Origin: a virus
Lineage: Duplodnaviria > Heunggongvirae > Uroviricota > Caudoviricetes
Virus record (IMG/VR): IMGVR_UViG_3300042482_001246
Length of the DNA stretch: 64,000 nt
Reading direction: 5' to 3' (one strand)
A program made the position numbers and the translations under genes. The stretch's first letter is position 1, and each line of letters begins with the position of its first letter. Below the pieces are notes generated by a model. The model saw only the letters and a list, made by a program, of their open reading frames with translations, searched no databases and was not told the DNA's origin. Positions 4,133 through 35,085 of this stretch are shown one piece after another.

Positions 4133-4927
4133 TTACGCGATTTTTTCAAACTTAGATAAAGTTTCACTTGCTTTAGAACGTGCCATACCTGATGAACCAC
4201 CAGCATTCAAGTCAGCAAAATAGTTAGACGCGTCTTTTTCATTATCAAATTTAGGAAGTGAATTTGGTGATTTACCTTTTAACATAAAGGCAATTGCAAC
4301 TTTGGCAGCTACTCTTGGGTCATCTAATGAATCAGGATTACCTTCAAGGTTTTCACCAACAAGACTACCATATTTTTTGTAGTTCGCTCTACCTGTTAGT
4401 CCATTGAACCCTCTACCTCTGTATTTGTATCCATCACCAGGTTCAGTGTTACCCAATCTGATACCTGATTTGTACCCATACATATATTCAAAAAAGTCCT
4501 TATTACTTTTTTTAAGTCTCGTTAACTGTCTATCACTTAACCTTTGGGCTCTTTTACCAAAAATACTTCTGATTCTATCGTTACTTGTATTACCGTAACC
4601 AATTTCAGAACCCATCTGAAAACCAGATTCTTTGGCCAAAACACTTAATATACCAATTTGAGTATCAACATCAGTAATACCCATTTTATTCATTTCATCT
4701 ATCACGATTTCTACGTTTCTGCCGGCTTCACCACTATAACTGTGTTTGATTTTACCATTATCGGAAACTTCAAGGTCGTCGGTTTTAACCTCATCACCTT
4801 TTGGTTTCTCTTCAGGCGCAAATGCTGAAAGGGTTTTTAAAAAATCGGCAAGTCTCCCAATAGCTTGTTCATTTAAACCCATAAGTCTAAACTGCTTATT
4901 AACTTCTTTCAAAAGTGGTTTTGACAT
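4133..4927 (-). CDS. glycoside hydrolase family 19-like lysozyme/endolysin
   Basis: GH19 motifs: KESGF..., then YRGRGFNGLTGRANY (compare chitinase YGRGPIQLSWNYNY), then AAKVAIAFM. Confidence 0.6.
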   Translation of the reverse strand: MSKPLLKEVNKQFRLMGLNEQAIGRLADFLKTLSAFAPEEKPKGDEVKTDDLEVSDNGKIKHSYSGEAGRNVEIVIDEMNKMGITDVDTQIGILSVLAKESGFQMGSEIGYGNTSNDRIRSIFGKRAQRLSDRQLTRLKKSNKDFFEYMYGYKSGIRLGNTEPGDGYKYRGRGFNGLTGRANYKKYGSLVGENLEGNPDSLDDPRVAAKVAIAFMLKGKSPNSLPKFDNEKDASNYFADLNAGGSSGMARSKASETLSKFEKIA

Positions 4928-5261
4928 AATATTTTTATCTATAAATATACAATTACAAAGTATTTATCATATATCTTTGATTCATTATGGCCGACAGGAA
5001 TTTTTATATGAGAAGAGTATTGACCAAAATTGTAAAAAATATGGTTAGTAAAAATCCTGCATTCAAAAATATTCGTTCAGTTGAAATACAATTCTTACTT
5101 AAATCTCCTGTTAGAAGCGCAATGTGTGATTGGGTTTATGGTCTTACTATCAAGACATATAACGATGATGTTAACCAACCTCAAATAATTTCTCAAATAA
5201 AAGAAAGAATTGATTCTGTTACATCACAACTAACAAAAGACACTTTCTGTCTCACCGACTA

Positions 5262-6389
5262 TTACTTCGAGTAGTCGTATTTACGAAAAATCCCATCTAC
5301 CGTATGTAACGCTTGAGCAACCACTTGGTGCATATCATAATAAGCATAGGTCCCAAGTCTACCCCCAAATATGTATTTAGATTCAGACTCTGTCAATGAT
5401 TTATATTTTTCATAAATCTCAACATTTTTACCGTCTCTGATTGGGTAATATGGTTCGTTCTCACCAGTATACTCACAAGAGTATTCCTTACTGATATAAG
5501 TACCTTTTTGATTCTTAGGGTCAAACCATTTATGTTCTAATATTCGAGTATACTTAGTATCAGAATCAGTAAAATTCATTACAGGGTTTCCTTGGAAGTT
5601 GTCAACTTCTAATTGGTAATTCTCCCATCTAAGACTACGATATTCCAATCGACCAAATTCGTAATCGTAAAACTTATCAATTGGTCCTGTGTAAATTATC
5701 TTATCAGATAAAGACTCAAGGATATCTCTATTCTCAAAAAAATCAAATTCAGTCAGTACTTCAATACCTGATAGTAGTTTTTCAAAAATTTGGGTATAAC
5801 CTCCGTCAGGAATTCCTTGGTACTTGTCATTGAAATAATTGTTATTCCAAGTAAATCTAACAGGTAATCTTTTAATAATGGATGGTGGTAGTTCAGAACA
5901 TTTCTTATCCCATTGTTTCTCAGTATAACCTTTAATCAACTTTTCATATATGTCAGTCCCTACCATTGAAAGAGCTTGTTCTTCCAAATTAGTGATAGGT
6001 CCCTTATATTTTTGTTCATCAATCATATACTGTGCCTTTTCAGGTGTGTTAACACCCCACAGTTGATTGAATGTCCACATATTGAAAGGTAATGAGTAAA
6101 TCTCACCCTTATAGTTAGCCAAAGGTGAATTAACAAACTGATTAAAAGTTGCAAATCTGTTTACGTAGTTCCAAACTCTTTCATCATTAGTATGGAATAT
6201 GTGAGCACCATACTTGTGAACGTGTATACCGTCTATATTTTCAGTATAACAGTTTCCACCGATATGATTTCTTTTTTCAACAACTAATACGTTGAATTTC
6301 TTACTTAGTTCGTGGGCGCAGATTGCTCCAAAGAGACCTGCCCCCACGATTACAAAGTCATAATGTCTATAGGAAGTCAAAAACGACAC
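5262..6389 (-). CDS. glf: UDP-galactopyranose mutase
   Basis: FAD-binding site DFVIVGAGLFGAICA, then EKRNHIGGNCYT and UGM-like colinearity over the whole protein. Confidence 0.85.
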   Translation of the reverse strand: MSFLTSYRHYDFVIVGAGLFGAICAHELSKKFNVLVVEKRNHIGGNCYTENIDGIHVHKYGAHIFHTNDERVWNYVNRFATFNQFVNSPLANYKGEIYSLPFNMWTFNQLWGVNTPEKAQYMIDEQKYKGPITNLEEQALSMVGTDIYEKLIKGYTEKQWDKKCSELPPSIIKRLPVRFTWNNNYFNDKYQGIPDGGYTQIFEKLLSGIEVLTEFDFFENRDILESLSDKIIYTGPIDKFYDYEFGRLEYRSLRWENYQLEVDNFQGNPVMNFTDSDTKYTRILEHKWFDPKNQKGTYISKEYSCEYTGENEPYYPIRDGKNVEIYEKYKSLTESESKYIFGGRLGTYAYYDMHQVVAQALHTVDGIFRKYDYSK

Positions 6390-7524
6390 TGTCAGGAGAT
6401 AATACAGGTTTATTAATCTTGTTCTCTAATCTTTCTTTGAACTCATACAAGAAGTTAGATGAATTAGTATAACATCTATCCTCAATCAAGAAACACAAAT
6501 TAGGATATGGGTTTTCTCTACCTTCATTAATCATTTGTTCAACAACCTCAAGAGCTTCTTTGTTCCTTTGTCTTTTCTCATAAAAGAATGCCAAATACAT
6601 CAAGTGTTCATTTCTTGTTGGAGAGAACGGTCCTGCAGATTTGTAGTGTTCTTCCGCTTTATCATACTCCCCTCTAAAGTTATATGCTTCACCCAAAAGT
6701 ATAAATGTTAGATATGACATCTCATCTAATCTTGCAGGTTTACCAGTATTAAACCAGTTGTGATTAAGTGCTAAAAACTTATTAAAGTAGAAAATCGCTC
6801 TACGAGCATATTCGTCTGAGTGGTCCTTTCCAAATGCAAGTTCATCAGGATTTCCATAACAATCAGCATAACTCTTACCAACATACCAAAGATGATACAT
6901 ATCCTCATTGATGGTGTTTCCAACAACTTTGTCAATTTCTAATTCCAAAGCATCTCTCAAAAACTTTCTTGGTGCAAACCAAGTCTGACCATCATTTGTG
7001 ATTAAGTGTCTAAATCCAAAAGGTAGAACCATTCTTTGGAAATTTTCACCGACTTCAGGTAAGTGAATTGTTTCGTGTCTTTTATCGTGTTGAAAAAACC
7101 AAGGTCTTTTTGCATTCCATAACCAAGTTCTGTAATACTTTGTACCCATTGCCTGAGCTGTAATGTTGAATGAATCAATTGAAGTGTCTTCCAATACAGT
7201 CCAATCAAAGTCCTCATCAACAATTAGTTGTTCATCAGCATCCATTCTCAGAATCCAATCACATCCGTGGTCAGCCTTCAAACATTCCTGTAAGGTATGG
7301 TCTCTATTCCATCCTGGATATTGCCATTCAATCTCATACAGGAATCCAGGAATCCCTTTTTCTTTGAAGTAGTTTCTTATAATGTCTTGTGTTCCGTCAG
7401 TAGACCCATTGTCCTGTATAACCCAATAATCAATATATTGGAAACAGGAGTCTAACATTCTTGTGATAGTTCTGGCCTCATTAGCCACCATCGCGTTTAA
7501 GCAAATTTTGGTTTTTTTATTCAT
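6367..7524 (-). CDS. family 2 glycosyltransferase with C-terminal TPR-like region
   Basis: N-terminal GT2 nucleotide-binding core (ICLNAMVANEA...QDNGSTDGT...DADE). Overlaps glf by 23 nt. Confidence 0.7.
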   Translation of the reverse strand: MNKKTKICLNAMVANEARTITRMLDSCFQYIDYWVIQDNGSTDGTQDIIRNYFKEKGIPGFLYEIEWQYPGWNRDHTLQECLKADHGCDWILRMDADEQLIVDEDFDWTVLEDTSIDSFNITAQAMGTKYYRTWLWNAKRPWFFQHDKRHETIHLPEVGENFQRMVLPFGFRHLITNDGQTWFAPRKFLRDALELEIDKVVGNTINEDMYHLWYVGKSYADCYGNPDELAFGKDHSDEYARRAIFYFNKFLALNHNWFNTGKPARLDEMSYLTFILLGEAYNFRGEYDKAEEHYKSAGPFSPTRNEHLMYLAFFYEKRQRNKEALEVVEQMINEGRENPYPNLCFLIEDRCYTNSSNFLYEFKERLENKINKPVLSPDSVVFDFL

Positions 7525-8764
7525 AAATGTAATTCATTACTTGTTCTTGTTTATAGTATTTTTTGATTGGGACACTGTTTTGGAACTTTTGTGAGTGTTG
7601 TGTAATCTCATCCCAATTCCAATCAAAATAACCCATTTCTTCAATTCTGTCGTGTATTCTTTTATCATAGAAGTCCCTGATTAATCTGGCCCTACGATTA
7701 ATATCTGTTGCATTATTATCAACTGTTGAGTTGTTATTGTTGTATTGTAGATATAACACCTTCTTTACGTGAATCATCTTGGTTTCTAAAAATGTACGAA
7801 TAAGAATCTCCAAGTCATCAGCAACAGGTGTTAATTTATTGTGTCCTGAAATATTATGATAAACACTTCTCTCCCACATTCTAGCGTGGTTTGGCATTGT
7901 GATATTGAATCTAATTGTGAGTGGGTTTACATCAGGGTACCAATGAGCAAGTCTATCAACACCGTCAACATTTACCCAACTGTGTCCAGCATACCCAAAG
8001 TCAAAATAGTTATCGTGACGAGCATACCAATTACCAGTCCAATCGTGGTCATAAAACTTAGGTTCACCGTCCTCGTATATCTCTGAACAATCAGTATAAA
8101 GAAATCCCGCGTCAGGGTATTTTAATATTGCATCATTAGCGGTTTCAAGACAAGTTGTAACCAAACAATCATCGTGGTCCAATTCAATCAACCAATCACC
8201 ATCACCTAACATAGCTGCACGATGTTTAGCCAAACCAATATTACCACCCGATAATGGATAAATCCTGTGAGGTTTTACCCGATAGTCTTTCTCCGCAATT
8301 TCAGTTATCATCTCCCAAGTTTCAGGGTCAGGCGAATCATCAACCACAACCCATTCCCAATTATCAAAGGTTTGGTTGTTTAAAGACTCATAAGTCCTAT
8401 AAATCCTTTCTCCTGTTTTGTAGGTTGGTGTGAAAATTGTAAATCTTGGTCTAAAATATTCACAGTTTCTAAACACAGTCTGACAAACAATTACGTTCGC
8501 CAAAATTGCTTCATCAATCGGTTCATCATAGTGAATGTGAAATCTTTTCAAATGATAGTGTGGGATGTTTACTTCTTCACCAAAACTTATAATTAAGTCA
8601 GGTTTATATTTTGTATAATCACCAACGACATCGTTTGTATATGGTAGATTATAAACAACAACATCATCAAACAGATGTTCTTCCCAGTATATTTGTGAGA
8701 TTAAGGTTGTTTCACCTTCCGTACCTAATCCATACACTATTGCTGACGGTTTTTTTGTCTTCAT
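7517..8764 (-). CDS. family 2 glycosyltransferase
   Basis: FTIFTPTYKTGERIYRTYESLNNQTFDNWEWVVVDDSPD ... LDHDD matches the GT2 DXD-type core. Overlaps the downstream gene by 8 nt. Confidence 0.75.
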   Translation of the reverse strand: MKTKKPSAIVYGLGTEGETTLISQIYWEEHLFDDVVVYNLPYTNDVVGDYTKYKPDLIISFGEEVNIPHYHLKRFHIHYDEPIDEAILANVIVCQTVFRNCEYFRPRFTIFTPTYKTGERIYRTYESLNNQTFDNWEWVVVDDSPDPETWEMITEIAEKDYRVKPHRIYPLSGGNIGLAKHRAAMLGDGDWLIELDHDDCLVTTCLETANDAILKYPDAGFLYTDCSEIYEDGEPKFYDHDWTGNWYARHDNYFDFGYAGHSWVNVDGVDRLAHWYPDVNPLTIRFNITMPNHARMWERSVYHNISGHNKLTPVADDLEILIRTFLETKMIHVKKVLYLQYNNNNSTVDNNATDINRRARLIRDFYDKRIHDRIEEMGYFDWNWDEITQHSQKFQNSVPIKKYYKQEQVMNYIYE

Positions 8765-8802
8765 ACGTTCAAAACATAGTTATTTAAAGTGTTGTTGTAA
8801 AG

Positions 8803-8845
8803 TTCATATAAAAGAAAAGGTCCTCTTTCGAGGACCAATTCACCA
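8803..8845 (-). terminator. rho-independent terminator
   Basis: Minus-sense ggtcctcgaaagaggacc hairpin followed by ttttctttt. Confidence 0.6.
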
Positions 8846-8851
8846 ACCATC

Positions 8852-9592
8852 TTATACCCACTCCATCATAATCTGAGACTTCCCGTTCCATTCTTTGATT
8901 TGACGTTTCGGAACCCAAAACTCCATCTCTCCGATTTCCTCAACTCGTTTGAGGTATGCCTCACGGTAAGCTCCGGCTTCAGAAGAGTTCTTGATGTAAG
9001 GGATTCTCATATGCTTTGAACAAATCTTACCCATTCCTGTCAACATTGAGAACTCATCAGTCAAATCTTTACCACAACACATACAAACCTTCATACGGCT
9101 TACGGTCATCTTACCTGAGAACTTAACCGCCTTTGGTGAGATAGCCAAAATCTTAGTGATATCCAAGATTGTTGGGTTGAACTCAAGGTTGTAAGTCTCC
9201 TTCATTTGTTGACCGATTTTACGTCCAACCTTGATGGTTTCTCCTACGGTTGGAAGTTTGAAGTTGATAGTCTTAGACTTGTCTTCTTCCTTCTCGATTT
9301 GTTTGAGAGCTGCGTTGATTTGTTTGTTGGTCAACGTTCCCCACTTTTGAAGTTTAAGAGAGATGTCTTTCACGAAGGTGCTCTCACCGTTGTATTCAAC
9401 GATTTTCTTCAACTCGGGACGTTCCTCAACGTTCAAAGTGGTTACAGGTGCATTGAGACATTTCTCAGCGGCTTCGACTTGCTTGGGAGTCAAACGACCC
9501 CACTGGTTAAGAGATTCTTTCATTTTAAGGATGAAGCTGTTGTTACCTTGGTAGTTACGAACTTTTTCTTGGGTAGTGATGGTGGTTGTCAT
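8852..9592 (-). CDS. hypothetical protein with two LxKWGxLTxKQ repeats
   Basis: The ORF-track start at 9724 reads through the terminator at about 9655-9690. I chose the internal Met MTTTITT instead. The protein carries an internal duplicated roughly 25 aa motif. Confidence 0.55.
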   Translation of the reverse strand: MTTTITTQEKVRNYQGNNSFILKMKESLNQWGRLTPKQVEAAEKCLNAPVTTLNVEERPELKKIVEYNGESTFVKDISLKLQKWGTLTNKQINAALKQIEKEEDKSKTINFKLPTVGETIKVGRKIGQQMKETYNLEFNPTILDITKILAISPKAVKFSGKMTVSRMKVCMCCGKDLTDEFSMLTGMGKICSKHMRIPYIKNSSEAGAYREAYLKRVEEIGEMEFWVPKRQIKEWNGKSQIMMEWV

Positions 9593-9651
9593 ATTGGTTG
9601 GTTTTAAATTCAATACAAAGATAAGGAAAGTTTTGGTTCCCACAACACAAT

Positions 9652-9692
9652 TCAAAAAAAAATCCCCTCTTTTTTTAGAGGGGATTGTCACT
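9652..9692 (-). terminator. rho-independent terminator
   Basis: Minus-sense aatcccctct-aaaaaaa-gaggggatt followed by a run of T. Confidence 0.65.
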
Positions 9693-9693
9693 C

Positions 9694-10158
9694 TTAGTTT
9701 TGAGTGAAGGCTTGGTCTGCCCAAGTCTTAGCTCCGAAGAATTCCCAAATCTTCATATCACACATATCGGGGAAAGACTCTCTCATTGTACCTACAGTCA
9801 ACACGTCCAAGAATCCTTTGTCGATACTGTTCCACTTGTTTCCTTTGGTGGTCAATACGTTCATCCAGTTACCGTATTCGTCCTTCACTTGAACGTTAAC
9901 AAGTGTGTTCTTCTTGTATCCACTGATAACTCGCTTGGGAGTTCCTTTGGTGTCGTGGATACTGATGAACCCTGCTCGACACTTACCAGCGATACGGAAC
10001 TCATACTCTTTGTTCTCGTCTTTAAGGTGGTTAGAAACCGATACAGTGTGACGTTTGCTCTTTACAATGGTTTCGAAACTTCCGTAGAATACGTCTCCTG
10101 CCATTACGCCTTCAGTAACTTTGATGATAGATTTTGGGGTGGTGGTTGTGGTTGTCAT
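9694..10158 (-). CDS. hypothetical protein (N-terminus MTTTTTT)
   Basis: 154 aa ORF with a terminator downstream and a TTTG-N19-TATCTTTG promoter-like element upstream. Confidence 0.6.
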   Translation of the reverse strand: MTTTTTTPKSIIKVTEGVMAGDVFYGSFETIVKSKRHTVSVSNHLKDENKEYEFRIAGKCRAGFISIHDTKGTPKRVISGYKKNTLVNVQVKDEYGNWMNVLTTKGNKWNSIDKGFLDVLTVGTMRESFPDMCDMKIWEFFGAKTWADQAFTQN

Positions 10159-10177
10159 ATGTGTGTGTATTTGTTTT

Positions 10178-10216
10178 TAACACTACAAAGATAGTGATAT
10201 TATCCAAACTGCCAAA
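10178..10216 (-). promoter_or_regulatory. Bacteroidota-type sigmaA promoter-like element (TTTG N19 TAnnTTTG)
   Basis: Minus-sense TTTGgcagtttggataatatcacTATCTTTG, about 25 nt upstream of the ATG at 10158. Confidence 0.4.
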
Positions 10217-10223
10217 ACTTTTT

Positions 10224-10529
10224 TTAAGAATTTCTACAACTTCCGTCACAACCTTGTCCGGCACCTTCGTAGTAGTTGGTCCTGAAGTCAACGTGGGTTC
10301 CTGTTGGTACGTTTGTTTTTCTACCACATTGGATACAAACTTCAAACCCATCGATACTGTTACCTAAACTTGTAACCATACCGTTCTCGTCTATCTGTAA
10401 CGTAACGTGTTCATCTCGGTTAGATTTCATTAACTCAATCTCATTCCAATATTTTTGACGAACATATTCACCGAGAGAATAATCGTTTGGGTGGGAGAGT
10501 ATTTCTTTTGATGTGATTTTTATTTCCAT
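10224..10529 (-). CDS. small hypothetical protein with C-terminal CxxC...C zinc-ribbon-like motif
   Basis: I trimmed the track ORF to the internal Met MEIKIT. The upstream 40 codons are AT-rich junk-like sequence. Confidence 0.5.
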   Translation of the reverse strand: MEIKITSKEILSHPNDYSLGEYVRQKYWNEIELMKSNRDEHVTLQIDENGMVTSLGNSIDGFEVCIQCGRKTNVPTGTHVDFRTNYYEGAGQGCDGSCRNS

Positions 10530-10617
10530 AGTTTTTTTTGTAAAAATAGTTTTAAGTTGTTTGTATGTAAACAAGATACCAGTCTTGTGGTATTTATTAA
10601 ATATCTTGAGGTAAAAT

Positions 10618-11142
10618 ATGAAATTAGATGACGTTTTAAGAATTTTCAAACATTCAGGTGGTTACCCAAACCCAAAAGCAACAGATATTTTGGATTTTAT
10701 GAATCTGAACAAAATCAAGTTCGCCCAAATGGTTGCAGATAGATTTGGTGAATCAGGGGCCGATAAGTTCTTCGACACCTCAGTAAAACGTTTATCTCAA
10801 AAAGATGGTGTATTTAAAATTTACCCATATGCTCAATGGGGACAGGATAACCCAAGTTATCTTGATTTGGATTTTAGTAATTCAAATACGGTTTTAGAAG
10901 AAGTTGGTAACCCTTACATTGGTATTTTGATTGAAGATTGGCAATTAAAAGATTCTTTAGTCGAGTTTATGGATGATGAAGGTAATACTCAAACATATAC
11001 ATTAGACGAACTTTTTGAAGTGATATCTGATGAAGAACCTTACCAACTTGATGATGCAATAGAAGATTGGATGTCTGTCATACAAAGGTCAATTTCAAAT
11101 TACTTAGGAGTTCCGGTAGTTTTAGGAAATAGGAAAAAATAA
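10618..11142 (+). CDS. hypothetical protein (plus strand, divergent from the neighbouring genes)
   Basis: 174 aa ORF followed immediately by a plus-sense terminator. Confidence 0.6.
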   Translation: MKLDDVLRIFKHSGGYPNPKATDILDFMNLNKIKFAQMVADRFGESGADKFFDTSVKRLSQKDGVFKIYPYAQWGQDNPSYLDLDFSNSNTVLEEVGNPYIGILIEDWQLKDSLVEFMDDEGNTQTYTLDELFEVISDEEPYQLDDAIEDWMSVIQRSISNYLGVPVVLGNRKK

Positions 11143-11146
11143 AAAA

Positions 11147-11174
11147 GGTCAGATGATATCTGACCTTTTCTTTT
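11147..11174 (+). terminator. rho-independent terminator
   Basis: ggtcagat-gat-atctgacc hairpin followed by ttttctttt. Confidence 0.7.
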
Positions 11175-11223
11175 GGGACTGACAGGATTTGTCAATCGAC
11201 TCCACCACCTGGACTACCAGGAT

Positions 11224-11517
11224 TTACTTGGTAACCAAAGCTTCCACTTTGGATTTCATATGTTCTGACAATGATACCTCACCAACCGTGGGTGTAATCA
11301 ATGAAGTCAAAACAATTGAATCAACCAAATATTTGTACGGAATGTGAACCAAGAAGTCGGTACCATTGAAGAAATCCAAATCTCCTTTGAGTTCCAAACA
11401 ACCGTGAACCATTTTCAAAAACAACTTAAACTGAATACCGTCAACAAAGGTTTCATTCAAGAGGGTCCCGAACTTCTCGTTCTCAATCCTAATATTGTAT
11501 GTAAAATTGATTTTCAT
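11224..11517 (-). CDS. small hypothetical protein
   Basis: Trimmed to begin after the terminator hairpin at 11558-11579. About 97 aa, no motif recognised. Confidence 0.3.
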   Translation of the reverse strand: MKINFTYNIRIENEKFGTLLNETFVDGIQFKLFLKMVHGCLELKGDLDFFNGTDFLVHIPYKYLVDSIVLTSLITPTVGEVSLSEHMKSKVEALVTK

Positions 11518-11550
11518 ACCACAAATATAGAAATAACTTTTCATATAAAC

Positions 11551-11579
11551 AAAAAAACCCGAAGATTTTTTTCTTCGGG
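11551..11579 (-). terminator. rho-independent terminator closing the tRNA/ncRNA transcription unit
   Basis: cccgaaga-ttttttt-cttcggg hairpin. The minus sense is followed by ttttttt. Confidence 0.6.
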
Positions 11580-11590
11580 TTCTGGCACTT

Positions 11591-12470
11591 AGGTTGAGAA
11601 TACACCTTCGATTAAGAATCTTTAGGGACATTATTGTTTCTTCCCGTTTCCACTACCTTTTGAGTAGTAATTCTTAGTGACGGTTCCTTAGGGGTACCAT
11701 TCCTTGAGTCGTGCGGTTACTCTCTTTGTACTTGTTACTCTCCGAGGTTGCCACCCCAGTGAATCCTTGCGGGATTAGAGAACTTTCTCAAGAATCATTT
11801 GGGTCTTGGGAACCCATAATGGCAATGAACATCTCATTACTATGTAGTCACCTTTCGCCTACGACTGACAGACACTTTTCCTTCGTCTTTTAGTATTTGC
11901 ATACTTCAAAATGCAAAGTTGTTGGTCTGTGGATGGTGAAAGTAGCGGTCTGCCAACCAGACAAGCCATCTTTTGAACGACTCGATACTGAACTACTCTC
12001 TGAGATATCCCTACCTCGATACTTCAAGAAATCTTCATAATTAAAATCTTGGTAGATTCTAACTAAGGTTACCAACAGCACCACCTGTACGATAACATGA
12101 CTTTCGTCTTTAAGACACCTCTGATATTGAATCCCGTGATTGTAAAGTTGGATGACTTTACTTCTCACAACAATTCTACGAGTTATTCTTATTGTTCTTC
12201 CGAACTCAACTCAACGACCCACATCGCTGAGTCATCATTCCATTTTGTCTACAGTGTCACCCTCGACTACTCAGGAACAATGATATCCCGCTTGCCTACT
12301 CGAGCTCTAAGAACCGAAGTTCAAAGAACCGCAGTCTCCGTTAACCTTCGGAGACCACTTTATCCCACTTTCGTGGTTTATTTATTGACCATAGGCGGCC
12401 AATTATCTTATTTACTAACCTGTTGGTTAGAAGGATAATCAAATATGTAAAAGAACGTGTTTCGTTAATT
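11591..12470 (-). ncRNA. candidate large structured non-coding RNA (GOLLD/ROOL-like class) downstream of the tRNA
   Basis: About 880 nt with no credible ORF in any frame. GC is visibly elevated over the roughly 33% GC background. Many local stem-loops (for example gtctccg-aaggttaa-cggagac). Bounded by a TTG-N20-TAACTTTG promoter-like element and a terminator. Confidence 0.3.
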
Positions 12471-12530
12471 GTTTCACAAAGTTAAGAAGATTATTTTAAT
12501 CTGTCAAGCACTTTGTAAAAGTTTTTTTTG

Positions 12531-12604
12531 TTGCGGGAGTCGGACTCGAACCGACGGCCTCAAGGTTATGAGCCTTGCGAGCTACCAACTGCTACCACCC
12601 CGCG
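12531..12604 (-). tRNA. initiator tRNA-fMet (anticodon CAU)
   Basis: Minus-sense CGCGGGGTGGTAGCAGTTGGTAGCTCGCAAGGCTCATAACCTTGAGGCCGTCGGTTCGAGTCCGACTCCCGCAA. Features: cloverleaf, TTCGAGT T-loop, CTCATAA anticodon loop, C1:A72 mismatch, and near-identity in layout to E. coli tRNA-fMet. CCA is not encoded. Confidence 0.85.
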
Positions 12605-12834
12605 ATATATTTTAAAGAACGTGATTCGAAAAAAAATCCCAAAACTTATATCCTCTCGAACACTCATTTTGGGATTTGGGGTTTGAGGATTCTACTCCTC
12701 TTCTTCCGAGTGTCTCACAAACTTACGAACAAATTTTGGACTTGTCAAATTGTTTATGAAACTTTTTTTGGGGGTATTATCTACCTTTCGGTAGAGTTTT
12801 ATAAATATATGCTAAAATTGGAAAAAACCAAGTC

Positions 12835-13254
12835 TTACAGTATATTCATTAACAATTTATTTAATTTTTCTCCTGTTTCAAGGTTTTTTACTTGTTTTTT
12901 GGTAAAATAACCACATTCGGTGTGTTCCTCACCGTCTTTGGCACTCTCCAAATCAGGTATAAGTTCCGTATCGCTATTGTATTCATATAGATACATTAGT
13001 CCCTTGAAGTGTTTACCATCACGCGTAAATCTTGGTAACATACCAGTGAACTTTAAGTTATCAGGATTCAAATCTAAATCAGTTTCTTCTTTAAATTCTC
13101 TAACAGCTGCCACCCTTGTCTCTTCCCCCTCTTCAATTTTTCCCGCAGGAACAGACCACATACCAGGGAAACTACCCTTCTTATTTCTCTTACATAGTAA
13201 GCATTTGTCACCAACTTTGACTAGTACACCGACGTATCTTTTGTAATCATTCAT
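12835..13254 (-). CDS. NUDIX hydrolase
   Basis: Nudix box GKIEEGEETRVAAVREFKEETDL. Confidence 0.8.
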   Translation of the reverse strand: MNDYKRYVGVLVKVGDKCLLCKRNKKGSFPGMWSVPAGKIEEGEETRVAAVREFKEETDLDLNPDNLKFTGMLPRFTRDGKHFKGLMYLYEYNSDTELIPDLESAKDGEEHTECGYFTKKQVKNLETGEKLNKLLMNIL

Positions 13255-13268
13255 ATTTATAGATATCT

Positions 13269-15018: not shown

Positions 15019-15021
15019 TAA

Positions 15022-15764: not shown

Positions 15765-15765
15765 T

Positions 15766-27800: not shown

Positions 27801-28088
27801 TTGGGCACCTTGATTACCTTGAGCGCCTTGTGGTCCAGCATTTACATTACCTTTCCATCCGGTAGAGTCTATTATTAATCCGTAATTGTTTGTAACTGTA
27901 TTAGCACTTAAATTTGTATTTTGTACTTGGAATATAGGTGCTGTCTTGGCAATTTTTAGATATGTTGTTGTTTGATTTACAACATAATTCAATGTAGAAC
28001 TAGAATATACCAAATCACTTCGAGTATTCCCCGAATCATAAAATTGTATTGTTATACTTGCAGGTACTATTATTATATTCTCAGCCAC
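24804..28088 (-). CDS. collagen-like fibre protein 1 with C-terminal S74 intramolecular-chaperone domain
   Basis: About 900 residues of Gly-X-Gln triplets (GAQ/GNQ/GGQ/GSQ/GTQ). C-terminus [10 protein letters not shown]...GFIAQEV matches the endosialidase/tail-fibre chaperone autocleavage region. Confidence 0.85.
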
Positions 28089-31000
28089 GTAATTTTTCTT
28101 CTAATTCAGTTAATGATGTTTTAAGGACATCCATTCTTTTTTGATTTTCTTTTACAAAAGATACTCCAAGAGTAACAAGTAGTTCATACTGTAAAGATTT
28201 ATAACCAAACTTATCTTCCCAAACAATTTCAGGAAAATATTTTTCAACTTGTTGGGCGATAAAACCTATACTTCGTTTTTTAAGTAAATACTTTTCATTG
28301 TCTTTATACAATGAAAGTTGTGGTATATTTTCAACCCAATCAAAAGATACACCATTCATATTAACAACATCAATAGCTCTATCAAATTTCTTGATGTTTT
28401 CTTTCAATCTTCTATCTGAAGGTGGCCCTTGAGGTCCTTGAGCACCTTGTGCTCCTTGTGGTCCCGTTTTACCAGCATTACCTTGAGCACCTTGAGCACC
28501 TTGTGGTCCTGTAACACTAGCACCTTGAGCTCCTTGAGAACCAGTACCTCCTGCAGGTCCTGTTGCACCTTGAGCTCCTTGGACTCCTTGTGGACCTGTC
28601 CCACCTGTAACAGCTCCTTGAGCGCCTTGTGCTCCTTGTGCCCCTGCAGCTCCTTTTCCTCCTTGAGCACCTTGTGCTCCTGTGGAACCCTGAGTTCCGG
28701 CCTTTCCTGTTGCACCTGTAGCACCTTTTGGTCCCGATGGTCCTTGAGCTCCTGTTGGTCCTTGAGGTCCTCTTGACCCTTGTACACCTTGTCCTCCTGT
28801 CTGACCTGCAGCACCTTGAGCCCCCTGTGTCGCACCCGCAGGTCCTTTTGTTCCTCCCGCACCTTGAGCACCTGTAGGACCTGGACCTCCTGTAGGACCT
28901 GTCGCTCCTTGAGACCCTTGAGAACCTTGAGCTCCAGCGGGTCCTTGAGCACCTTGTGTAACACTCGGATTCCCTTGTGGTCCTTGTGAACCTGTTGCTC
29001 CTGTGGCACCCTGAGCTCCTTGGGTACCTCCTTGAGCACCTGTGGCTCCTTGTGGGCCTTGAGGTCCTTTTGCTCCTTGAGCTCCTTGAGGACCTCCTTG
29101 AGCCCCTATCGGACCTTGGGCTCCTTGAGCTCCTGTAGCACCTGTTGCACCTTGAGTACCTCCTGTAGCACCTTGGAATCCCTGAGGTCCTGTAGCACCT
29201 GTAGCACCCTGAGCCCCTTGAGGTCCTCCTTGTGCACCAACAGGTCCTTGAGCACCTGTAGCACCTGTAGCACCTGGAGCCCCTTGCGGAGTACCTTGTG
29301 GTCCTTGAGCACCTTGAGCTCCTGTTGGTCCTGTAGAGCCTGTTGCTCCTTGGACCGCTCCTTGAGCACCTTGATTACCAACAGCACCTGTTTGTCCAGT
29401 CGCACCTTGTGCCCCTTGAGCACCTTGAGGTCCTCCTGGATTTCCCTGAGCACCTTGGGCTCCTTGTCCACCTTGAGCACCCTGTGCACCTGTTGGTCCT
29501 CCCTGTGCACCTGTTGGTCCTTGAGCACCTTGGGCTCCTTGAGCACCTTGTCCTCCTTGTACACCTCCTTGAGAACCTGTTGGTCCTTGAGCTCCTGTCG
29601 CACCTGTGGCACCTGTCGCTCCTTGCGTTCCTCCTTGAGCACCTGTTGGTCCTTGAGCCCCTGTTGCACCTGTGGCTCCTGTAGCCCCTTGAGGTCCTCC
29701 TTGTGCACCAACAGGTCCTTGAGCTCCTGTAGCTCCTGTGGCTCCCGTCGCACCCTGAACTCCACCTTGAGCACCTGTTGGTCCTTGAGCTCCTGTAGCT
29801 CCTGTGGCCCCTGTTGCACCCTGAACTCCACCTTGAGCACCTGTAGGTCCTTGTGCACCTGTTGTTCCATTAGCACCCGTTGCCCCCTGAACTCCACCTT
29901 GAGCACCTGTTGGCCCTTGTGCACCTGTTGTTCCATTAGCACCTTGAGCCCCTTGAGGTCCTCCTTGTGCACCTGTTGGTCCTTGGGCACCTGTTGTACC
30001 TTGAGCACCTTGAGCTCCTTGAGAAGCTCCTTGTGCTCCTTGTGAACCAACGGCTCCTTGAGCACCTTGTGCTCCCTGATTTCCCTGAACTCCACCTTGT
30101 GCTCCTGTAGGTCCTTGGGCACCTGTTGTACCTTGAGCACCTTGAGCCCCTTGAGAAGCCCCTTGAGCTCCTTGTGAACCAACGGCTCCTTGTGCACCCT
30201 GTGCTCCCTGATTTCCCTGAACTCCACCTTGTGCTCCTGTAGGTCCTTGTGCACCTGTTGTACCAGCGGCACCTGTTGCCCCCTGAACTCCACCTTGAGC
30301 ACCTGTAGGTCCTTGTGCTCCTGTGGCACCTGTCGCACCTGTTGCCCCTTGGACACCTCCTTGAGCTCCCGTACTACCTTGAGCTCCTTGAGCACCTGTC
30401 GTACCCTGAGCACCCTGAGAAGCACCTTGTGCACCTTGTGAACCAACGGCTCCTTGAGCACCTTGTGCTCCCTGATTTCCTTGGACACCACCTTGAGCTC
30501 CCGTAGGTCCTTGGGCACCTGTCGTACCTTGAGCACCTTGAGCACCTTGTGATGCACCTTGAGCTCCTTGTGAACCAACGGCTCCTTGAGCACCTTGTGC
30601 TCCCTGATTTCCTTGGACACCACCTTGAGCACCTGTTGTCCCTTGAGCACCTTGAGCTCCTGTCGCCCCTGTCGCTCCTTGCGTTCCTCCTTGAGCGCCC
30701 GTACTACCTTGGGCACCTTGGGCACCTGTGGCTCCTGTCGCTCCTTGTGTTCCTCCTTGAGCACCTGTACTACCTTGAGCACCTTGTGCCCCTGTCGTAC
30801 CTTGAGCACCTTGTGAACCTCCTTGAGCACCTTGTGAACCAACGGCTCCCTGAGCACCTTGGGCTCCTTGTCCTCCTTGTGTCCCACCTTGAGCACCTGT
30901 ACTACCTTGAGCACCTTGAGCACCTGTCGTACCTTGAGCACCTTGTGAACCTCCTTGAGCTCCTTGTGAACCAACGGCTCCTTGAGCACCTTGTGCTCCC

Positions 31001-34000
31001 TGATTTCCTTGGACACCACCTTGAGCACCTGCAATACCTTGAGCACCTTGTGCCCCTGTTGTTCCTTGCGCCCCTTGAGACGCTCCTTGAGCACCTTGTG
31101 CTCCTACTGCTCCTTGAGCACCAGTACTACCTTGTGCTCCTTGAGCTCCTGTACTACCACCCCCACCTTGAGCTCCCGTTGTTCCTTGTGCCCCAACATT
31201 TCCTTGAGCTCCTTGAGCACCTTTAATAGTTGTTTGTGGTCCAATCCATACACCGGCATTATTAATCATATTTTGACCACCAACCCATAAACCTGATGGT
31301 GAACTTGATATTGTAACACCTGTAGTTGTTATGTCATTATTACTGAAAACTACTAATGATGGACTTGTTGTTGCAGAAAATTTGACATCACCCGGTGCAA
31401 CCATATTAATTTGGATACTATCCGCAGCAGACGCCCCCTCGTATACTATATGAGGCGATGAGTTTCCTGTAGTTCCACTTGGATATATTATTACGTCTGC
31501 CATATATTAATTTCTTTCAACCTTTTCTTCTAAATTTGTTAATAGAGAATCCAAGTCATCAATAAATACTTGTTGCTCTTTTATGGCTTCTACTAAATAA
31601 GCGTTAAGTGAGGTATAGTTTAAACTATAATAACCGCCACCCCTTAATTCAATTATATCTGGTATTACACTTCTAACTTCTTGTGCAATAAAACCAAACG
31701 AGTGTAGTTTACCATCTCGTTTCATTGCCTCATAGTTGGGGTCTAATTCGTTCCAATCAAATTCAACAGGATTTAATTGTAAAACACTTTCTAACGAGTT
31801 TTCAATAGTAGTAATTTCTTGTTTTAAACTAATATCTGAAGGACAAGTATTAGGAACACCAATAATTAAACAACCTCCTGTGTCTAGGTCGTAATAAAGT
31901 GATGATAAGTCATACCATACGGGAGCAGGTAAAGGAGTTACACAACTAAGATTTGCACAGTCAGTCGCATTTTCAAACACAGATGTGTTGTTAGTCCAAG
32001 TAGTAATATCGTCTGGCGAGTATATGTCCCCATAAAATCCGCGGTTTAATGAACAAGCACTACCCGGGTCACCCGCATAATAACCTGAATATTGAAAACA
32101 AGATGCTGATGGTGGTCCTGCCGGTCCTGGCGCTCCAGGAGCACCCTGAGCACCTTGTGGTCCCGTATCACCTTGAGCTCCCGTAGCACCTGTTAGTCCG
32201 TCGGCACCTGCAGGTCCTGGTGCTCCTTGAGCACCTTGTGTTAACCCTTGTGCACCTTGTGGTCCTTGAGCGCCTTGTGCACCTTGTGGTCCTTTTGCAC
32301 CTGTAGGTCCTGGTGCTCCTTGTGCACCTAATGGACCGGCACCTCTAAGTTCCCCTATTCCCCCTTGAGCCCCCTGAGCACCTGATGGTACAATTGGTGT
32401 AGGTCCTTGAGCACCTTGTGCACCTTGTCCTCCACCTGCTCCTTGAGCTCCTTGGAATCCAAGAGGTCCTTGAGCACCTTGAGTAGCACCTGTTGGTCCT
32501 TGAGCCCCTGTAGCACCTTGTGGTCCAGGAAGTCCAGCAATTCCTTGTGTTCCAACATTTCCTTGAGCACCTGTAGGTCCGGGAGAACCTTGAGCACCTG
32601 TTGCACCGATATTTCCAATAGGACCAGGACCTGTTCCTTGAGCTCCTTGTGGTCCTTGAACACCAGGAAATCCTGTGTTTCCTTGTGCACCTGTGGCACC
32701 TGTTGCACCTGTTGGTCCAACATCTCCTTGTGAACCTTGAAATCCAAAAGTACCGGTACCACCACCAGCACCTGTATTTCCAACATCACCTTGTGCACCT
32801 GAAAAACCTGTGGCACCTTGAGCTCCTTGAGAACCTGTAGGCCCAACCGGACCTGTTGCTCCACCCGCTCCTTGAGAACCTTGAGCTCCTGTAGCACCAG
32901 TATTTCCAACATTACCTTGTGAACCTTGAGCTCCTTGAGCCCCTTGTGGTCCTCCTCCTCCCACAGGACCCGCAAAACCTGGAAATCCTGTAGAACCTTG
33001 AGAACCTTGAGCTCCTTGAGCCCCTTGTGGTCCAACGGCCCCTTGAGAACCCTGAGCTCCTTGAGCTCCTTGAGCACCTATTGTACCTGAATTACCTGTT
33101 GGCCCAAAGACTCCTACCGTTCCTTGAGCTCCTTGTGCTCCTTGTGGTCCTCCTGAACCTTGTGGACCTCGAGCCCCTTGTGAACCCTGAGCACCTTGTG
33201 CTCCTTGTGCACCCACATTACCTGTAGGTCCAACGGCTCCTTGTGAACCCTGAGCACCTTGTGCTCCTTGTGCACCTTGGTTACCTGTAGGTCCAACGGC
33301 TCCTTGTGAACCCTGAGCTCCTTGGGCTCCTTGCGCACCTTGGTTACCTGTAGGTCCAACGGCTCCTTGTGAACCTTGAGCTCCTTGTGCTCCTTGTGGT
33401 CCTCCTGAACCTTGCGGTCCAACGGCTCCTTGTGAACCTTGTGCTCCTTGTGCTCCTTGTGGTCCTCCTGAACCTTGCGGTCCAACGGCTCCTTGTGAAC
33501 CCTGAGCACCTTGTGCTCCTTGTGCACCCACATTACCTGTAGGTCCAACGGCTCCTTGTGAACCCTGAGCACCTTGTGCTCCTTGTGCACCTTGGTTACC
33601 TGTAGGTCCAACGGCTCCTTGTGAACCTGTATTACCTTGAGCTCCTTGGTTACCGGTATTTCCTTGGGCTCCTGTATGTCCTGTTGAACCTTGTGCTCCT
33701 TGAGCTCCTGTTGCACCTCCATTACCTGTTGGTCCAACCGCTCCTTGGAAACCTGTGTTACCTTGTGCTCCTTGATTACCTGTGTTTCCTTGTGCACCTG
33801 TATGTCCTGTTGAGCCCTGAGCACCTTGTGCACCTGTTGCCCCACCATTACCTGTAGGCCCTACATTACCTTGTGAACCTTGAGCCCCTTGTGCCCCTTG
33901 AGCCCCTTGAGCCCCTTGTGGTCCTACATTACCTTGTGAACCTTGTGCTCCTTGTGCTCCTTGTGGTCCTGTTGAACCTGTTGGTCCGACATTACCCTGA

Positions 34001-34800
34001 GCTCCCTGATTACCTTGAGCACCTGTTGGCCCCACGTTTCCTTGTGCACCTGTGTGTCCTGTTGAACCCTGAGCACCTTGTGCTCCTGTAGCTCCCGCAT
34101 TACCTGTTGGTCCTACGTTACCCTGAGAACCTTGATTTCCTTGTGCACCTGTATTACCAGTATTACCTTGAGCACCTGTATGTCCTGTTGAACCCTGAGC
34201 GCCTTGTGCTCCTGTCGCACCTCCGTTACCTGTTGGTCCGACATTACCCTGAGCGCCCTGATTACCTTGTGAACCTTGTGACCCTGTTGCACCTGTTGGT
34301 CCGACATTACCTTGTGCTCCCTGATTACCTTGTGAACCTTGTGACCCTGTCGCTCCTGTTGGTCCGACATTACCCTGAGCACCTTGATTACCTTGAGAAC
34401 CTTGAGCTCCCACATTACCTTGTGCACCAGGATGTCCTGTTGAACCCTGAGCTCCTTGAGCACCTGTCGCACCTCCGTTACCTGTTGGTCCGACATTACC
34501 CTGAGCACCTTGATTACCTTGAGAACCTTGAGCTCCCACATTACCTTGTGCGCCAGGATGTCCTGTTGAACCCTGAGCTCCTTGTGCACCTGTCGCTCCT
34601 CCGTTACCTGTTGGTCCGACATTACCCTGAGCGCCCTGATTACCCTGAGCACCTGTTGGTCCCACGTTTCCTTGTGCACCAGGATGTCCTTGAGAACCTT
34701 GAGCATTTGCTGAACCTTGAGCTCCTTGATTACCCTTTCCACCTTGTGAACCTTGTGAACCCTGAGCACCCGTATTTCCAATGGCTCCTTGAGCTCCTTG
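25090..34800 (-). repeat. extensive near-perfect triplet/multi-triplet tandem repeats inside the three collagen-like genes
   Basis: Recurrent units such as ggtgctccttgagcaccttg repeat dozens of times. They generate long spurious ORFs in five other frames. Confidence 0.9.
28081..31503 (-). CDS. collagen-like fibre protein 2 with C-terminal S74 chaperone domain
   Basis: GxQ triplets with GGVQG/GASQG interruptions. C-terminus [11 protein letters not shown]...GFIAQQV. Confidence 0.85.
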
Positions 34801-35085
34801 ATTACCTTGGAATCCTGTTATATTTGTTCCAGGTCCTAACCAAGCACCTGTACCATTTAATACTTGAATTCCTCCAATAGTTAGATTATTAATGATATTA
34901 ATATCATCATACGCTTGGATACCACCCGATGACATTAATAATGTAGAACCCCACTTTATAGAAGTACCAGCACCATAAGGTCTGACCTCTAACCTCAAAG
35001 TTCCCGTATTTTCAAAATCAATATAGGGAATCCTTCCGGGATTCGGGACTAAATTACCAGGTACAATTGTTATATTTTTTGCCAT
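31507..35085 (-). CDS. collagen-like fibre protein 3 with Cys-rich knob and C-terminal S74 chaperone domain
   Basis: G-N-Q/G-A-Q triplets with GPTG/GPQG, then a Cys-rich segment, then [11 protein letters not shown]...GFIAQEV. Confidence 0.85.

Follow-up and report, generated by a model that had tools for sequence, protein, structure and literature searches.

The glycocin S/O-glycosyltransferases SunS and ThuS (PDB 7MSN and 7MSK) join a GT-A domain to a C-terminal TPR-like substrate-binding domain, and GmaR of Listeria, a flagellin O-GlcNAc transferase that is also an anti-repressor, likewise combines GT2 and TPR domains. BclA, a collagen-like filament of the Bacillus anthracis exosporium, carries G-P-T repeats that are O-glycosylated on Thr with a rhamnose/anthrose glycan, and human LH3/PLOD3 with ColGalT1, as well as mimivirus L230, represent systems in which a hydroxylase, a glycosyltransferase (GT) and a collagen-like substrate occur as a set. 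Mycobacteriophage GTs decorate the phages' own structural proteins in the host cytoplasm, with the C-termini of capsid and tail-tube proteins as the acceptors described in the source (Freeman et al. 2023, cited in PMC12619734). For Rhizobium phage RL38J1, a 5-hydroxycytosine galactosylation pathway has been proposed that includes a phage UDP-galactopyranose mutase (UGM); its GTs are GT-B-like, and a nucleotide kinase and a 5hodCMP synthase of ThyA type accompany them (PMC13326640). We compared with these systems a three-gene cassette in a 64,000-nucleotide stretch of DNA (the window) from an uncultured freshwater phage of ~93 kb.

A phage cassette of a mutase and two glycosyltransferases

Positions 5262-8764 of the window are filled exactly by three overlapping open reading frames (ORFs), all on the minus strand. 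Their Pfam matches agree with the first-pass annotation, which had described a glf gene with two overlapping GT2 genes, one of them TPR-tailed. It had placed the mutase gene ahead of the GT genes, an order that holds in plus-strand coordinates only; the transcription order is GT415, GT_TPR and then UGM.

7517..8764, minus strand: GT415, 415 aa, family-2 (GT-A) glycosyltransferase
6367..7524, minus strand: GT_TPR, 385 aa, GT-A domain and C-terminal TPR-like helical domain
5262..6389, minus strand: UGM (glf), 375 aa, UDP-galactopyranose mutase
8819..8836, minus strand: terminator-like hairpin (GGTCCTC-GAAA-GAGGACC and a T run), from a consensus scan only

GT415 and GT_TPR overlap by 8 nt. UGM likely starts at either the GTG at 6389 or the TTG at 6380, the latter being the call made in other assemblies, and its overlap with GT_TPR is accordingly 23 or 14 nt. 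The hairpin separates the start of GT415 from the DUF6011 gene that lies upstream, and weakly suggests that the cassette forms a separate transcription unit. None of the three proteins contains a transmembrane segment, and all are soluble. The cassette lies 16 kb from the tail fibre genes, and the genes around it belong to nucleotide metabolism or are miscellaneous. Between 4 and 10 kb upstream of the cassette are DNA methylases of the N6/N4 types, a NUDIX gene and a T7 gp1.7-like nucleotide kinase, and the genome further encodes a third GT2, an epimerase, a cupin and an ADP-heptose-type pair made up of a PfkB kinase and a cytidylyltransferase-like protein.

The profile matches of the cassette proteins are far stronger than chance would give, and the trio was found again in dozens of independent metagenome assemblies. 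A megablast search of 50,697 phage records with the cassette as query gave zero matches, and tblastn with GT415 and GT_TPR gave distant matches only, in megaphages, a Tunturiibacter phage and S-CRM01; no cultured relative is therefore available for comparison.

By sequence, UGM is a full member of its family: it scored 400.4 bits over the whole protein with TIGR00031 (NCBIfam equivalog cut-off, 303.75) and matched Pfam GLF (PF03275; E 2e-75, 253.5 bits, cut-off 26.3) and NAD_binding_8 (E 2e-23). It is ~60% identical to E. coli UGM (phmmer E 2e-145 against 1I8T), and alignment to 1I8T showed that E. coli Y151, W156, R170, Y181, R278, Y311, R340, Y346 and D348, which we take to be the substrate-binding and catalytic set of bacterial UGM, are all identical in the phage protein. 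The FAD fold and EKRNHIGGN motif reported at first pass were recovered (VVEKRNHIGGN), and the FAD-binding Rossmann GxGxxG motif is intact (VIVGAGLFGA at residues 13-22, containing GAGLFG). The mutase looks active, and would convert host UDP-galactopyranose into UDP-galactofuranose (UDP-Galf).

The glycosyltransferases and a predicted protein acceptor

GT415 matched Glycos_transf_2 (PF00535) with an E value of 8e-16 (58.8 bits, cut-off 23.3). Its N-terminal alpha/beta domain is confident and spans residues 1-100; a GT-A core (~105-215) and a conserved C-terminal half follow, and the DDS (D142 D143) and DHDD (D196 H197 D198 D199) motifs are invariant across 28 homologues. Its PDB sequence matches are the GT-A cores of K4CP, TarP and TarS. 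The structural model is poor (pLDDT 59.8), with GT-A fold matches confined to residues 108-215 of the core, and therefore neither the acceptor nor the N- and C-terminal domains can be judged from the fold. GT415 may add another sugar to the same acceptor as GT_TPR.

GT_TPR also matched PF00535 (E 1e-7, 32.5 bits, cut-off 23.3), and is divided into a GT-A domain (~1-200) and a TPR-like helical domain (~205-375). The Pfam TPR matches, at residues 274-334, are weak and are backed by consensus-TPR PDB matches and by the helical C-terminal half of the model; the DxD-type motif D95-A-D97-E98 is invariant across 33 sequences. The predicted structure is confident and contains the GT-A fold. Two independent structure searches with this model placed SunS/ThuS far above every polysaccharide GT2, GT_TPR being nearer to these peptide GTs than to TarS, TarP, RmlT or other polysaccharide GTs, and the only named relatives at the sequence level are GmaR and the SunS family. 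As modelled, GT_TPR is structurally closest to peptide GTs, which points to a protein acceptor. Judging from its likeness to SunS/ThuS and GmaR, the TPR domain would hold the protein or peptide acceptor while the GT-A domain transfers the sugar.

GT_TPR nevertheless differs from these enzymes. Its identity to SunS/ThuS is only 14-17%, and it scored 18.2 bits with TIGR04195, for which the cut-off is 350. No glycocin precursor, ABC exporter or thiol-disulfide gene was found near it; the only candidate precursor beside it, a small convergent ORF (4987-5274, plus strand), was rejected because it has no paired-Cys glycocin pattern. It is partnered instead by a second GT2 and UGM, to which relatives add oxygenases and collagen-like fibres. 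The similarity to GmaR is also distant, and GmaR has no UGM partner. Where UGM is present, it always shares a cluster with GT_TPR, in five differing gene arrangements, and GT_TPR may therefore, tentatively, be the likelier user of UDP-Galf.

Synteny with collagen-like fibres

The three genes are kept together in more than 40 viral contigs, at 60-74% identity and with varying flanks. At 14 loci where GT415 is at most 60% identical, its strand also carries a collagen-like fibre gene 0.65-4.8 kb upstream, and the genes between the fibre and the GTs are mostly small oxygenases of two families. The first (PF13640) is P4H-like, with PKHD hydroxylase matches at E 1e-11. The second (DUF6445), for which neither a PDB match nor any profile-level resemblance to the first was found, is oxygenase-like by motif only, namely a conserved HxD...H...R pattern read by eye. 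In RNR-linked and window-type loci the cassette is flanked by additional P4H-like families; a methyltransferase, GT2/TPR and DUF6445 are fused in one protein in half of the long relatives (5/10), and GT4-OGFOD2 oxygenase fusions adjoin GT415 in relatives. A search of 185,579 species genomes yielded a single match, a phage-like contig binned with Saprospirales that has the same collagen-DUF6445-GT415-GT_TPR order; the cassette family is essentially viral. The collagen-like fibre is the only recurrent structural-gene neighbour seen. The fibre region of T4-like aquatic phages is, however, a known hypervariable island that gathers many auxiliary genes (PMC7029224), so the adjacency of GTs and fibres may be positional rather than functional.

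The window phage codes for three collagen-like tail fibres:

31507..35085, minus strand: collagen-like tail fibre 1, 1192 aa, ~296 G-X-Y triplets, C-terminal Peptidase_S74 chaperone
28081..31503, minus strand: collagen-like tail fibre 2, 1140 aa
24804..28088, minus strand: collagen-like tail fibre 3, 1094 aa

The Pfam Collagen and Peptidase_S74 matches have E values of 1e-112 and 8e-13 in fibre 1, 2e-72 and 1e-11 in fibre 2, and 3e-93 and 1e-15 in fibre 3. Thr occupies Y in 22, 28 and 11% of the triplets of fibres 1, 2 and 3, respectively, with roughly 33-83 G-X-Thr triplets per fibre, and Lys at Y is nearly absent. In other phages, homologues of GT415 have a homologue of fibre 1 a short way upstream. 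An IMG/VR scan for co-occurrence of fibre and cassette, using the C-terminal 230 aa of fibre 1, gave distant matches only and none on cassette contigs, as the tips of the fibres vary too much. No oxygenase or hydroxylase was found in the window and its flanks by jackhmmer with four oxygenase families. Lys/Pro composition of the fibres was considered as a tracker of the hydroxylases and set aside: a comparison of relative loci L019 and L022 with the window was suggestive, and was contradicted by locus L015, which has both oxygenases yet no Lys at Y in its fibre.

The fibres are candidate acceptors of the cassette glycan. Between the two targets proposed at first pass, virion proteins and the host surface, we favour the former and grade the latter lower, because GT_TPR is nearest to peptide GTs and because GTs lie downstream of collagen-like fibres and P4H-like oxygenases in relatives; structure prediction and synteny are what this preference draws on. 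The cassette would serve a freshwater phage that looks lytic as a soluble module for protein glycosylation in the cytoplasm, and we see about an even chance that it glycosylates phage proteins there, most likely the three collagen-like fibres (24.8-35.1 kb), with a galactofuranose (Galf)-containing glycan. The acceptor residues would probably be the Thr or Ser of G-X-Thr/Ser triplets, on the pattern of Bacillus BclA; the likeness to BclA lies in the G-X-Thr-rich fibres and is an analogy only, since the enzymes and the glycan differ. Unlike many of its relatives, the window phage has no hydroxylase to provide Hyp/Hyl acceptor sites. Speculatively, the glycan coat may stabilise the fibres, shield them or tune receptor binding.

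There is no detectable orthology between the cassette and LH3/PLOD3, ColGalT1 or L230. The set of hydroxylase, GT and collagen-like substrate is absent from the window phage and present in many relatives; the scarcity of Lys at Y in the window fibres is a further difference, as is the predicted sugar, Galf rather than Gal-Glc. Somewhat more tentatively, several aquatic phage lineages may possess a collagen-type modification pathway of their own, in which P4H/lysyl-hydroxylase-like oxygenases, GT_TPR/GT415 and UGM would build Galf glycans on fibres, with the window phage representing a hydroxylase-free version acting on Thr/Ser of G-X-Thr triplets. The mycobacteriophage system belongs to another phage lineage, has other acceptors and is not known to involve a UGM, a TPR domain or a collagen-like fibre; it has been demonstrated by experiment, whereas the window cassette is known from sequence and predicted structure.

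Alternative targets and significance

The cassette could instead remodel host surface glycans, adding Galf side chains to LPS, capsule or other Und-P-linked glycans and so masking receptors against superinfection or the loss of progeny on debris. GT2 and UGM genes are standard parts of O-antigen and capsule loci, the named sequence relatives of GT415 are the polysaccharide GTs TuaG, PglI and WcaA (all far under the cut-off), and GT4 and GT9-like genes are added in relatives; the third GT2 and the ADP-heptose-type pair, epimerase and cupin of the same genome would also fit, and this is how GTs of the pelagi- and cyanomyophage host-recognition cluster have been read (PMC7029224). However, the three proteins are soluble, no flippase, polymerase or membrane component, Gtr-type or otherwise, was seen, and the TPR-bearing GT is far more like peptide GTs than TarS, TarP or RmlT. 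Polysaccharide synthesis offers no obvious role for the fusions and synteny with collagen-like genes and prolyl-hydroxylase-like oxygenases, and lysogeny genes are absent among the scanned ORFs. We therefore regard a host-glycan target as unlikely.

A protein acceptor other than the fibres is quite improbable. The arguments for a protein acceptor leave its identity unspecified, and capsid or tail proteins could be glycosylated, as documented for the capsid and tail tube of mycobacteriophages (Freeman et al. 2023, as cited in PMC12619734), or host proteins such as ribosomal or translation factors could be, as a take-over device, with hydroxylation in addition in relatives. PKHD/PiuC-type hydroxylases are not known as collagen enzymes, and the window cassette does not adjoin the fibres; yet the collagen-like fibre is the sole structural neighbour that recurs, and no capsid or tail-tube gene recognisably adjoins the cassette in the window.

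More doubtful still is DNA hypermodification, an option beyond the two considered at first pass, in which galactose or Galf glycans on a hydroxylated base would counter restriction and the oxygenases of relatives would act as TET/JBP-like base hydroxylases. RL38J1 offers a proposed precedent for a phage UGM supplying UDP-Galf to phage GTs (PMC13326640), and the window UGM is ~44-45% identical to UGMs of related Rhizobium/Sinorhizobium phages such as RL2RES and phiM9 (RL38J1 was not among the matches listed). GT-A-fold DNA GTs found beside TET-like dioxygenases have TarP as their best PDB match, as does GT415 (bioRxiv 10.1101/2023.12.21.572611), although TarP-like matches are common to any GT2. 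The nucleotide kinase, NUDIX and methylase genes upstream in the window and, in some relatives, the position of the module beside RNR, DnaB, DNA polymerase or ThyA/ThyX genes would also suit this reading. By contrast with RL38J1, both cassette GTs are GT-A, the TPR-bearing one included, and ~84 kb revealed no enzyme that hydroxylates bases. No ThyA homologue, TET/JBP or C5-cytosine methyltransferase was detected among window ORFs of at least 150 aa and flank Pfam matches (~84 of ~93 kb), and the methylases present are of other types. ThyA was rejected as a DNA-modification marker, the sole one adjoining a cassette relative (locus L014) keeping D169 and N177 and thus being an ordinary, canonical dTMP synthase. 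The oxygenases match prolyl/lysyl-hydroxylase-type families and not Tet_JBP, and the TPR domain and SunS likeness indicate a protein acceptor.

A lysogenic route, also raised at first pass, is unsupported, and a Gtr lysogenic-conversion module (GtrA, GtrB and membrane GtrC of a temperate phage) was rejected, since the proteins are soluble, have no such neighbours, and no integrase or other lysogeny gene occurs among the scanned ORFs.

Galf is strongly antigenic and absent from animals. If the target were DNA or host glycan, the cassette would still be a widespread, uncharacterised phage pathway with a sugar rare in viruses. Genes for GTs, 2OG oxygenases and prolyl-4-hydroxylases are among the commonest auxiliary genes in aquatic viromes, and their roles, mostly guessed, have been given as LPS remodelling (PMC7029224) or as "cryptic" (PMC9301287). 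The module yields the concrete hypothesis that phages glycosylate their own receptor-binding fibres. If true, virion glycosylation would reach beyond mycobacteriophages, with a bearing on host range, fibre stability and antigenicity, and a new family of protein-directed GTs, and possibly a protein galactofuranosyltransferase, would be added. The more tentative collagen-type pathway would give bacterial viruses a counterpart to the hydroxylation and glycosylation of collagen in metazoans and mimivirus, and would account for the "cryptic" plenty of P4H, 2OG-oxygenase and GT genes among aquatic viruses.

Layout and predicted enzymes of the cassette

The cassette, window 5262-8764, resolves into exactly three minus-strand ORFs with no remainder, listed here in order of transcription.

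8764..7517, minus strand: GT415, family-2 glycosyltransferase (GT2), 415 aa, first transcribed
7524..6367, minus strand: GT_TPR, GT2 with a TPR-like domain, 385 aa, second transcribed
6389..5262, minus strand: UGM, UDP-galactopyranose mutase, 375 aa, last transcribed

The first two genes overlap by 8 nt, and the overlap of GT_TPR with UGM is 14 nt if UGM begins at TTG 6380 and 23 nt if it begins at GTG 6389, an arrangement typical of translational coupling. Between the cassette and the upstream DUF6011 gene lies a terminator-like hairpin (8836..8819), recognized by consensus match only. The first-pass annotation had described glf followed by two GT2 genes; family matches and intact motifs establish all three identities, but in the transcription unit UGM comes last, not first. 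On the plus strand, a 95-aa ORF (4987-5274) converges on UGM and overlaps its 3' end by 13 nt; several independent assemblies include a gene call of 77-95 aa for this ORF, which showed neither a family match nor a Cys pattern like that of glycocins.

UGM matched the Pfam families GLF (E 2e-75) and NAD_binding_8 (2e-23), scored 400 bits against the NCBIfam UDP-galactopyranose mutase equivalog cut-off of 304, and aligned over its full length with E. coli UGM 1I8T (E 2e-145), with identical residues at the positions aligned to Y151, W156, R170, Y181, R278, Y311, R340, Y346 and D348. Judged by family scores and aligned residues, no sign of inactivation is apparent. UGM genes are also annotated in ~90 deposited phage records.

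The core of GT415 is a clear GT2 domain (PF00535, E 8e-16) whose DDS and DHDD motifs are invariant. Its AlphaFold model was poor (pLDDT 59.8), being confident only for an N-terminal 100-residue domain and the GT-A core, and its fold matches (TarP, TarS, RmlT and K4CP) would indicate 'GT-A' and nothing more specific. The GT2 match of GT_TPR was weaker than that of GT415 yet significant, with an invariant D95-A-D97-E98, and its model was good (pLDDT 87.9), displaying a GT-A domain followed by a TPR-like helical domain. In a Foldseek search against the PDB, the glycocin glycosyltransferases SunS and ThuS ranked at the top (E 7e-14 to 2e-12 over ~380 columns), with TarS, TarP and RmlT lower at only ~1e-6. 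Only two named sequence relatives were found: the SunS family model (E 9e-4) and GmaR of Listeria (E 4e-4), a TPR-bearing flagellin O-GlcNAc transferase. The SunS family score was far below that model's cut-off, which places GT_TPR outside the SunS family; in its build, however, the protein is like enzymes whose acceptors are peptides and proteins. No hydrophobic stretch of membrane-spanning length was found in GT415, GT_TPR or UGM.

Synteny of the module in viral relatives

Like gene identity, intact motifs and structural class, synteny is established: IMG/VR scans with both glycosyltransferases as queries yielded 74 loci, more than 40 of which keep the order GT415-GT_TPR-UGM at 60-74% protein identity, with variable flanks. 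Clustered at 50%, the GT_TPR family comprises 61 full-length-type clusters at E <= 1e-30 and ~3,000 at E <= 1e-10; among 185,579 species genomes it hardly occurs at all. UGM is optional in relatives; where present, it always lies within the GT_TPR cluster.

Five arrangements of the module in viral loci
1: GT415-GT_TPR-UGM; window type
2: GT415-carbamoyltransferase-GT_TPR-UGM; L015
3: GT_TPR-UGM-oxygenase, without GT415, after RNR genes; L053-L059, L074
4: DUF6445-UGM-GT_TPR-DUF6445-GT415-like; L061-L066 and L071, T4-like cyanophages with psbA, ThyX, PhoH and gp32
5: GT415-GT_TPR-like, then a distant UGM-like flavoprotein; L014

In the cyanophage locus L071 (IMGVR_UViG_3300043446_004488, 4158-20276), the diverged module lies between psbA and ThyX/PhoH/gp32 and is preceded by GT47-like and GT2 genes. 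Because a diverged version occurs in this T4-like cyanophage, the module crosses phage lineages and probably host phyla.

In loci whose GT415 is at most 60% identical (L007, L009, L012, L013, L015, L016, L018-L023, L046 and L087), GT415 is preceded on its own strand, at a distance of 0.65-4.8 kb, by a collagen-like fibre gene; most of the other diverged loci end before that point. The upstream fibre genes are homologues of a window fibre gene (31507-35085), and neck-protein, sheath and T4-type terminase genes give several of these loci a T4-like structural set.

The genes between fibre and GT415 are mostly small putative oxygenases. Family A matched PF13640 (prolyl-4-hydroxylase-type 2OG-Fe(II), E ~1e-15), NCBIfam Fe2+-dependent dioxygenase/PKHD hydroxylase models (E 3e-20) and, in the PDB, PKHD-type hydroxylases (E 1e-11) and weakly a Bacillus P4H, and it carries the HxD...H...R motif. 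Family B corresponds to Pfam DUF6445 and conserves the same pattern, but searches linked it neither to a solved structure nor to family A. In window-type loci (L027-L034, L047, L072 and L073), family C (PF13640, 235-243 aa) lies 0-1.4 kb from the cassette, in L029 separating GT_TPR from UGM, and family D follows UGM in L055, L057, L059 and L074. Fusions were also observed: a GT4 joined to an OGFOD2-like oxygenase domain immediately after GT415 (L016-L023), a single methyltransferase, GT2-TPR and DUF6445 polypeptide in five of ten long GT_TPR relatives, and a methyltransferase-GT415 fusion in some window-type contigs (for example, L004 9473-11257). An O-carbamoyltransferase is inserted between GT415 and GT_TPR in L015 (6335-8002), and L046 (11153-14089) encodes a 978-aa protein with GT4 and FkbM/FtsJ-type methyltransferase domains. 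The tailoring enzymes inserted or fused in L015, L046 and L004 imply methylated or carbamoylated sugars.

The window phage and its collagen-like fibres

Contigs of up to ~93-95 kb, assembled from many freshwater metagenomes, encode identical cassette proteins, and the window corresponds to ~9.3-73.3 kb of one such contig of 92,972 bp. Its gene content is that of a phage, with nearly all genes on one strand, and includes a primase, SbcCD, a sigma factor, DnaJ, two DNA methylases, an amidase and a lysozyme-like protein; no DNA-level relative was found among 50,697 deposited phages. SprB repeats are a motif of the Bacteroidota gliding-motility adhesin; together with a lipoprotein-type signal peptide and one related Saprospirales-binned contig, they hint at a Bacteroidota host. 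Three further genes are as follows.

18893-20056, minus strand: glutamine synthetase, GlnII type (Gln-synt_N and Gln-synt_C; NCBIfam GlnII E 2e-116, 389 bits, below the cut-off of 500)
48452-49261, minus strand: sigma-70-family factor with regions 1.2, 2 and 4
60554-62545, minus strand: 663-aa protein with SprB repeats

The first is an unusual auxiliary gene for a phage; its product could also be a glutamyl-ligase with a substrate other than ammonia. Host-like chaperone and membrane-type genes (254-2497 and 39324-40259, minus strand) encode a cyclophilin PPIase (E 8e-42), a protein of the SPFH/Band-7 type, a 280-aa lipoprotein-like protein with Cys after its signal peptide, and a DnaJ that is complete from J domain through zinc finger to C-terminal domain. 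Upstream of the cassette, a minus-strand run of nucleotide- or DNA-related genes (12835-18889) comprises a 389-aa protein with an N-terminal DUF3310/T7 gp1.7-like nucleotide-kinase domain, an N6/N4 DNA methylase, a weakly DHH-like 472-aa protein and a NUDIX protein; the region also holds a convergent DUF192 ORF. These genes could serve the nucleotide pool or DNA modification, and no base-hydroxylating enzyme was found in the ~84 of ~93 kb examined.

Further sugar genes lie outside the window on contigs of the same genome (L082 12870-13589 and 16945-17376; L084 1535-4655): a third GT2 (239 aa; best NCBIfam match an arsenosugar/mftF-like GT, below cut-off), two cytidylyltransferase-like genes, a PfkB sugar kinase, an NAD-dependent epimerase/dehydratase and a cupin, accompanied by large methyltransferases (one of 714 aa). 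This set resembles a nucleotide-sugar pathway, of the ADP-heptose or another type, which may feed the same glycan.

Three tandem paralogous fibre genes (24804-35085, minus strand; 1094, 1140 and 1192 aa), 16 kb from the cassette, each contain ~297 G-X-Y triplets and a terminal Peptidase_S74 intramolecular chaperone, with a local GC of 0.48-0.54 versus mostly 0.30-0.37 across the genome. At Y, Gln accounts for 50-77% and Thr for 11-28%, and Lys is almost absent, whereas in fibres of the hydroxylase-bearing loci L019 and L022 Pro makes up 44-59% of the X residues and Lys 13-20% of the Y residues. This contrast is suggestively in step with hydroxylase presence, but is contradicted by L015. Jackhmmer searches with all four oxygenase families detected none in the window and its flanks; the window phage carries a reduced version of the module.

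Candidate acceptors and proposed function

The peptide-glycosyltransferase-like TPR enzyme, the adjoining or fused hydroxylase-type oxygenases, the same-strand fibre linkage and the soluble enzymes are best fitted by a protein-modifying module with collagen-like fibres as a recurrent candidate substrate. We give about an even chance that the cassette glycosylates proteins, the fibres being the likeliest acceptor. The first-pass annotation had offered modification of virion proteins or of the host surface glycan, the latter during lysogeny or infection; peptide-glycosyltransferase likeness and the collagen/oxygenase synteny favour virion or fibre glycosylation, and the lysogenic option found no support.

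Host surface-glycan remodelling, the usual reading of glycosyltransferases that lie near the fibre genes of aquatic myophages, in their 'host recognition cluster' (PMC7029224), is compatible with the additional nucleotide-sugar genes and with GT4 and GT9-like genes as neighbours, but we consider it unlikely, as it leaves the TPR/SunS likeness and the hydroxylase and collagen links unexplained, and no membrane components for it were found. Capsid, tail or host proteins as the targets are less probable still. The least probable explanation is DNA glycosylation, which we added to these readings: a 2026 paper assigned a phage UGM to 5-hydroxycytosine galactosylation in Rhizobium phage RL38J1 (PMC13326640) and GT-A DNA glycosyltransferases are known beside TET-like dioxygenases (bioRxiv 10.1101/2023.12.21.572611), but no ThyA homologue, TET/JBP or C5-methyltransferase was found in about 84 of about 93 kb, the sole ThyA adjoining a cassette relative is canonical, and the relatives' oxygenases match protein-hydroxylase families, not Tet_JBP.

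For the window phage, we propose that UGM would make UDP-Galf and that GT415 and GT_TPR together would assemble an O-glycan with Galf in it on Ser/Thr residues of the phage's own proteins, the fibres being the most probable ones. The acceptor, the donor of each glycosyltransferase, their order of action and the biological benefit are what we infer. By analogy, the oxygenase-glycosyltransferase-fibre module of the relatives recalls collagen modification by LH3/ColGalT1 in animals and by mimivirus L230, and the hydroxylase-free window case recalls BclA of Bacillus anthracis, which is collagen-like and carries O-glycans on Thr.

The searchable literature, which leaves most subscription journals outside its coverage, yielded no description of a module of SunS-like GT2-TPR, GT415 and UGM linked to oxygenases and collagen-like fibres. 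Virion glycosylation is established for mycobacteriophages, according to Freeman et al. (2023) as cited in PMC12619734, and viral P4H genes are known and labelled 'cryptic' (PMC9301287). On the favoured reading, the module would be a form of phage self-glycosylation. The module is widespread and testable by cloning alone and, if the proposal is true, a function would be assigned to very common virome genes.
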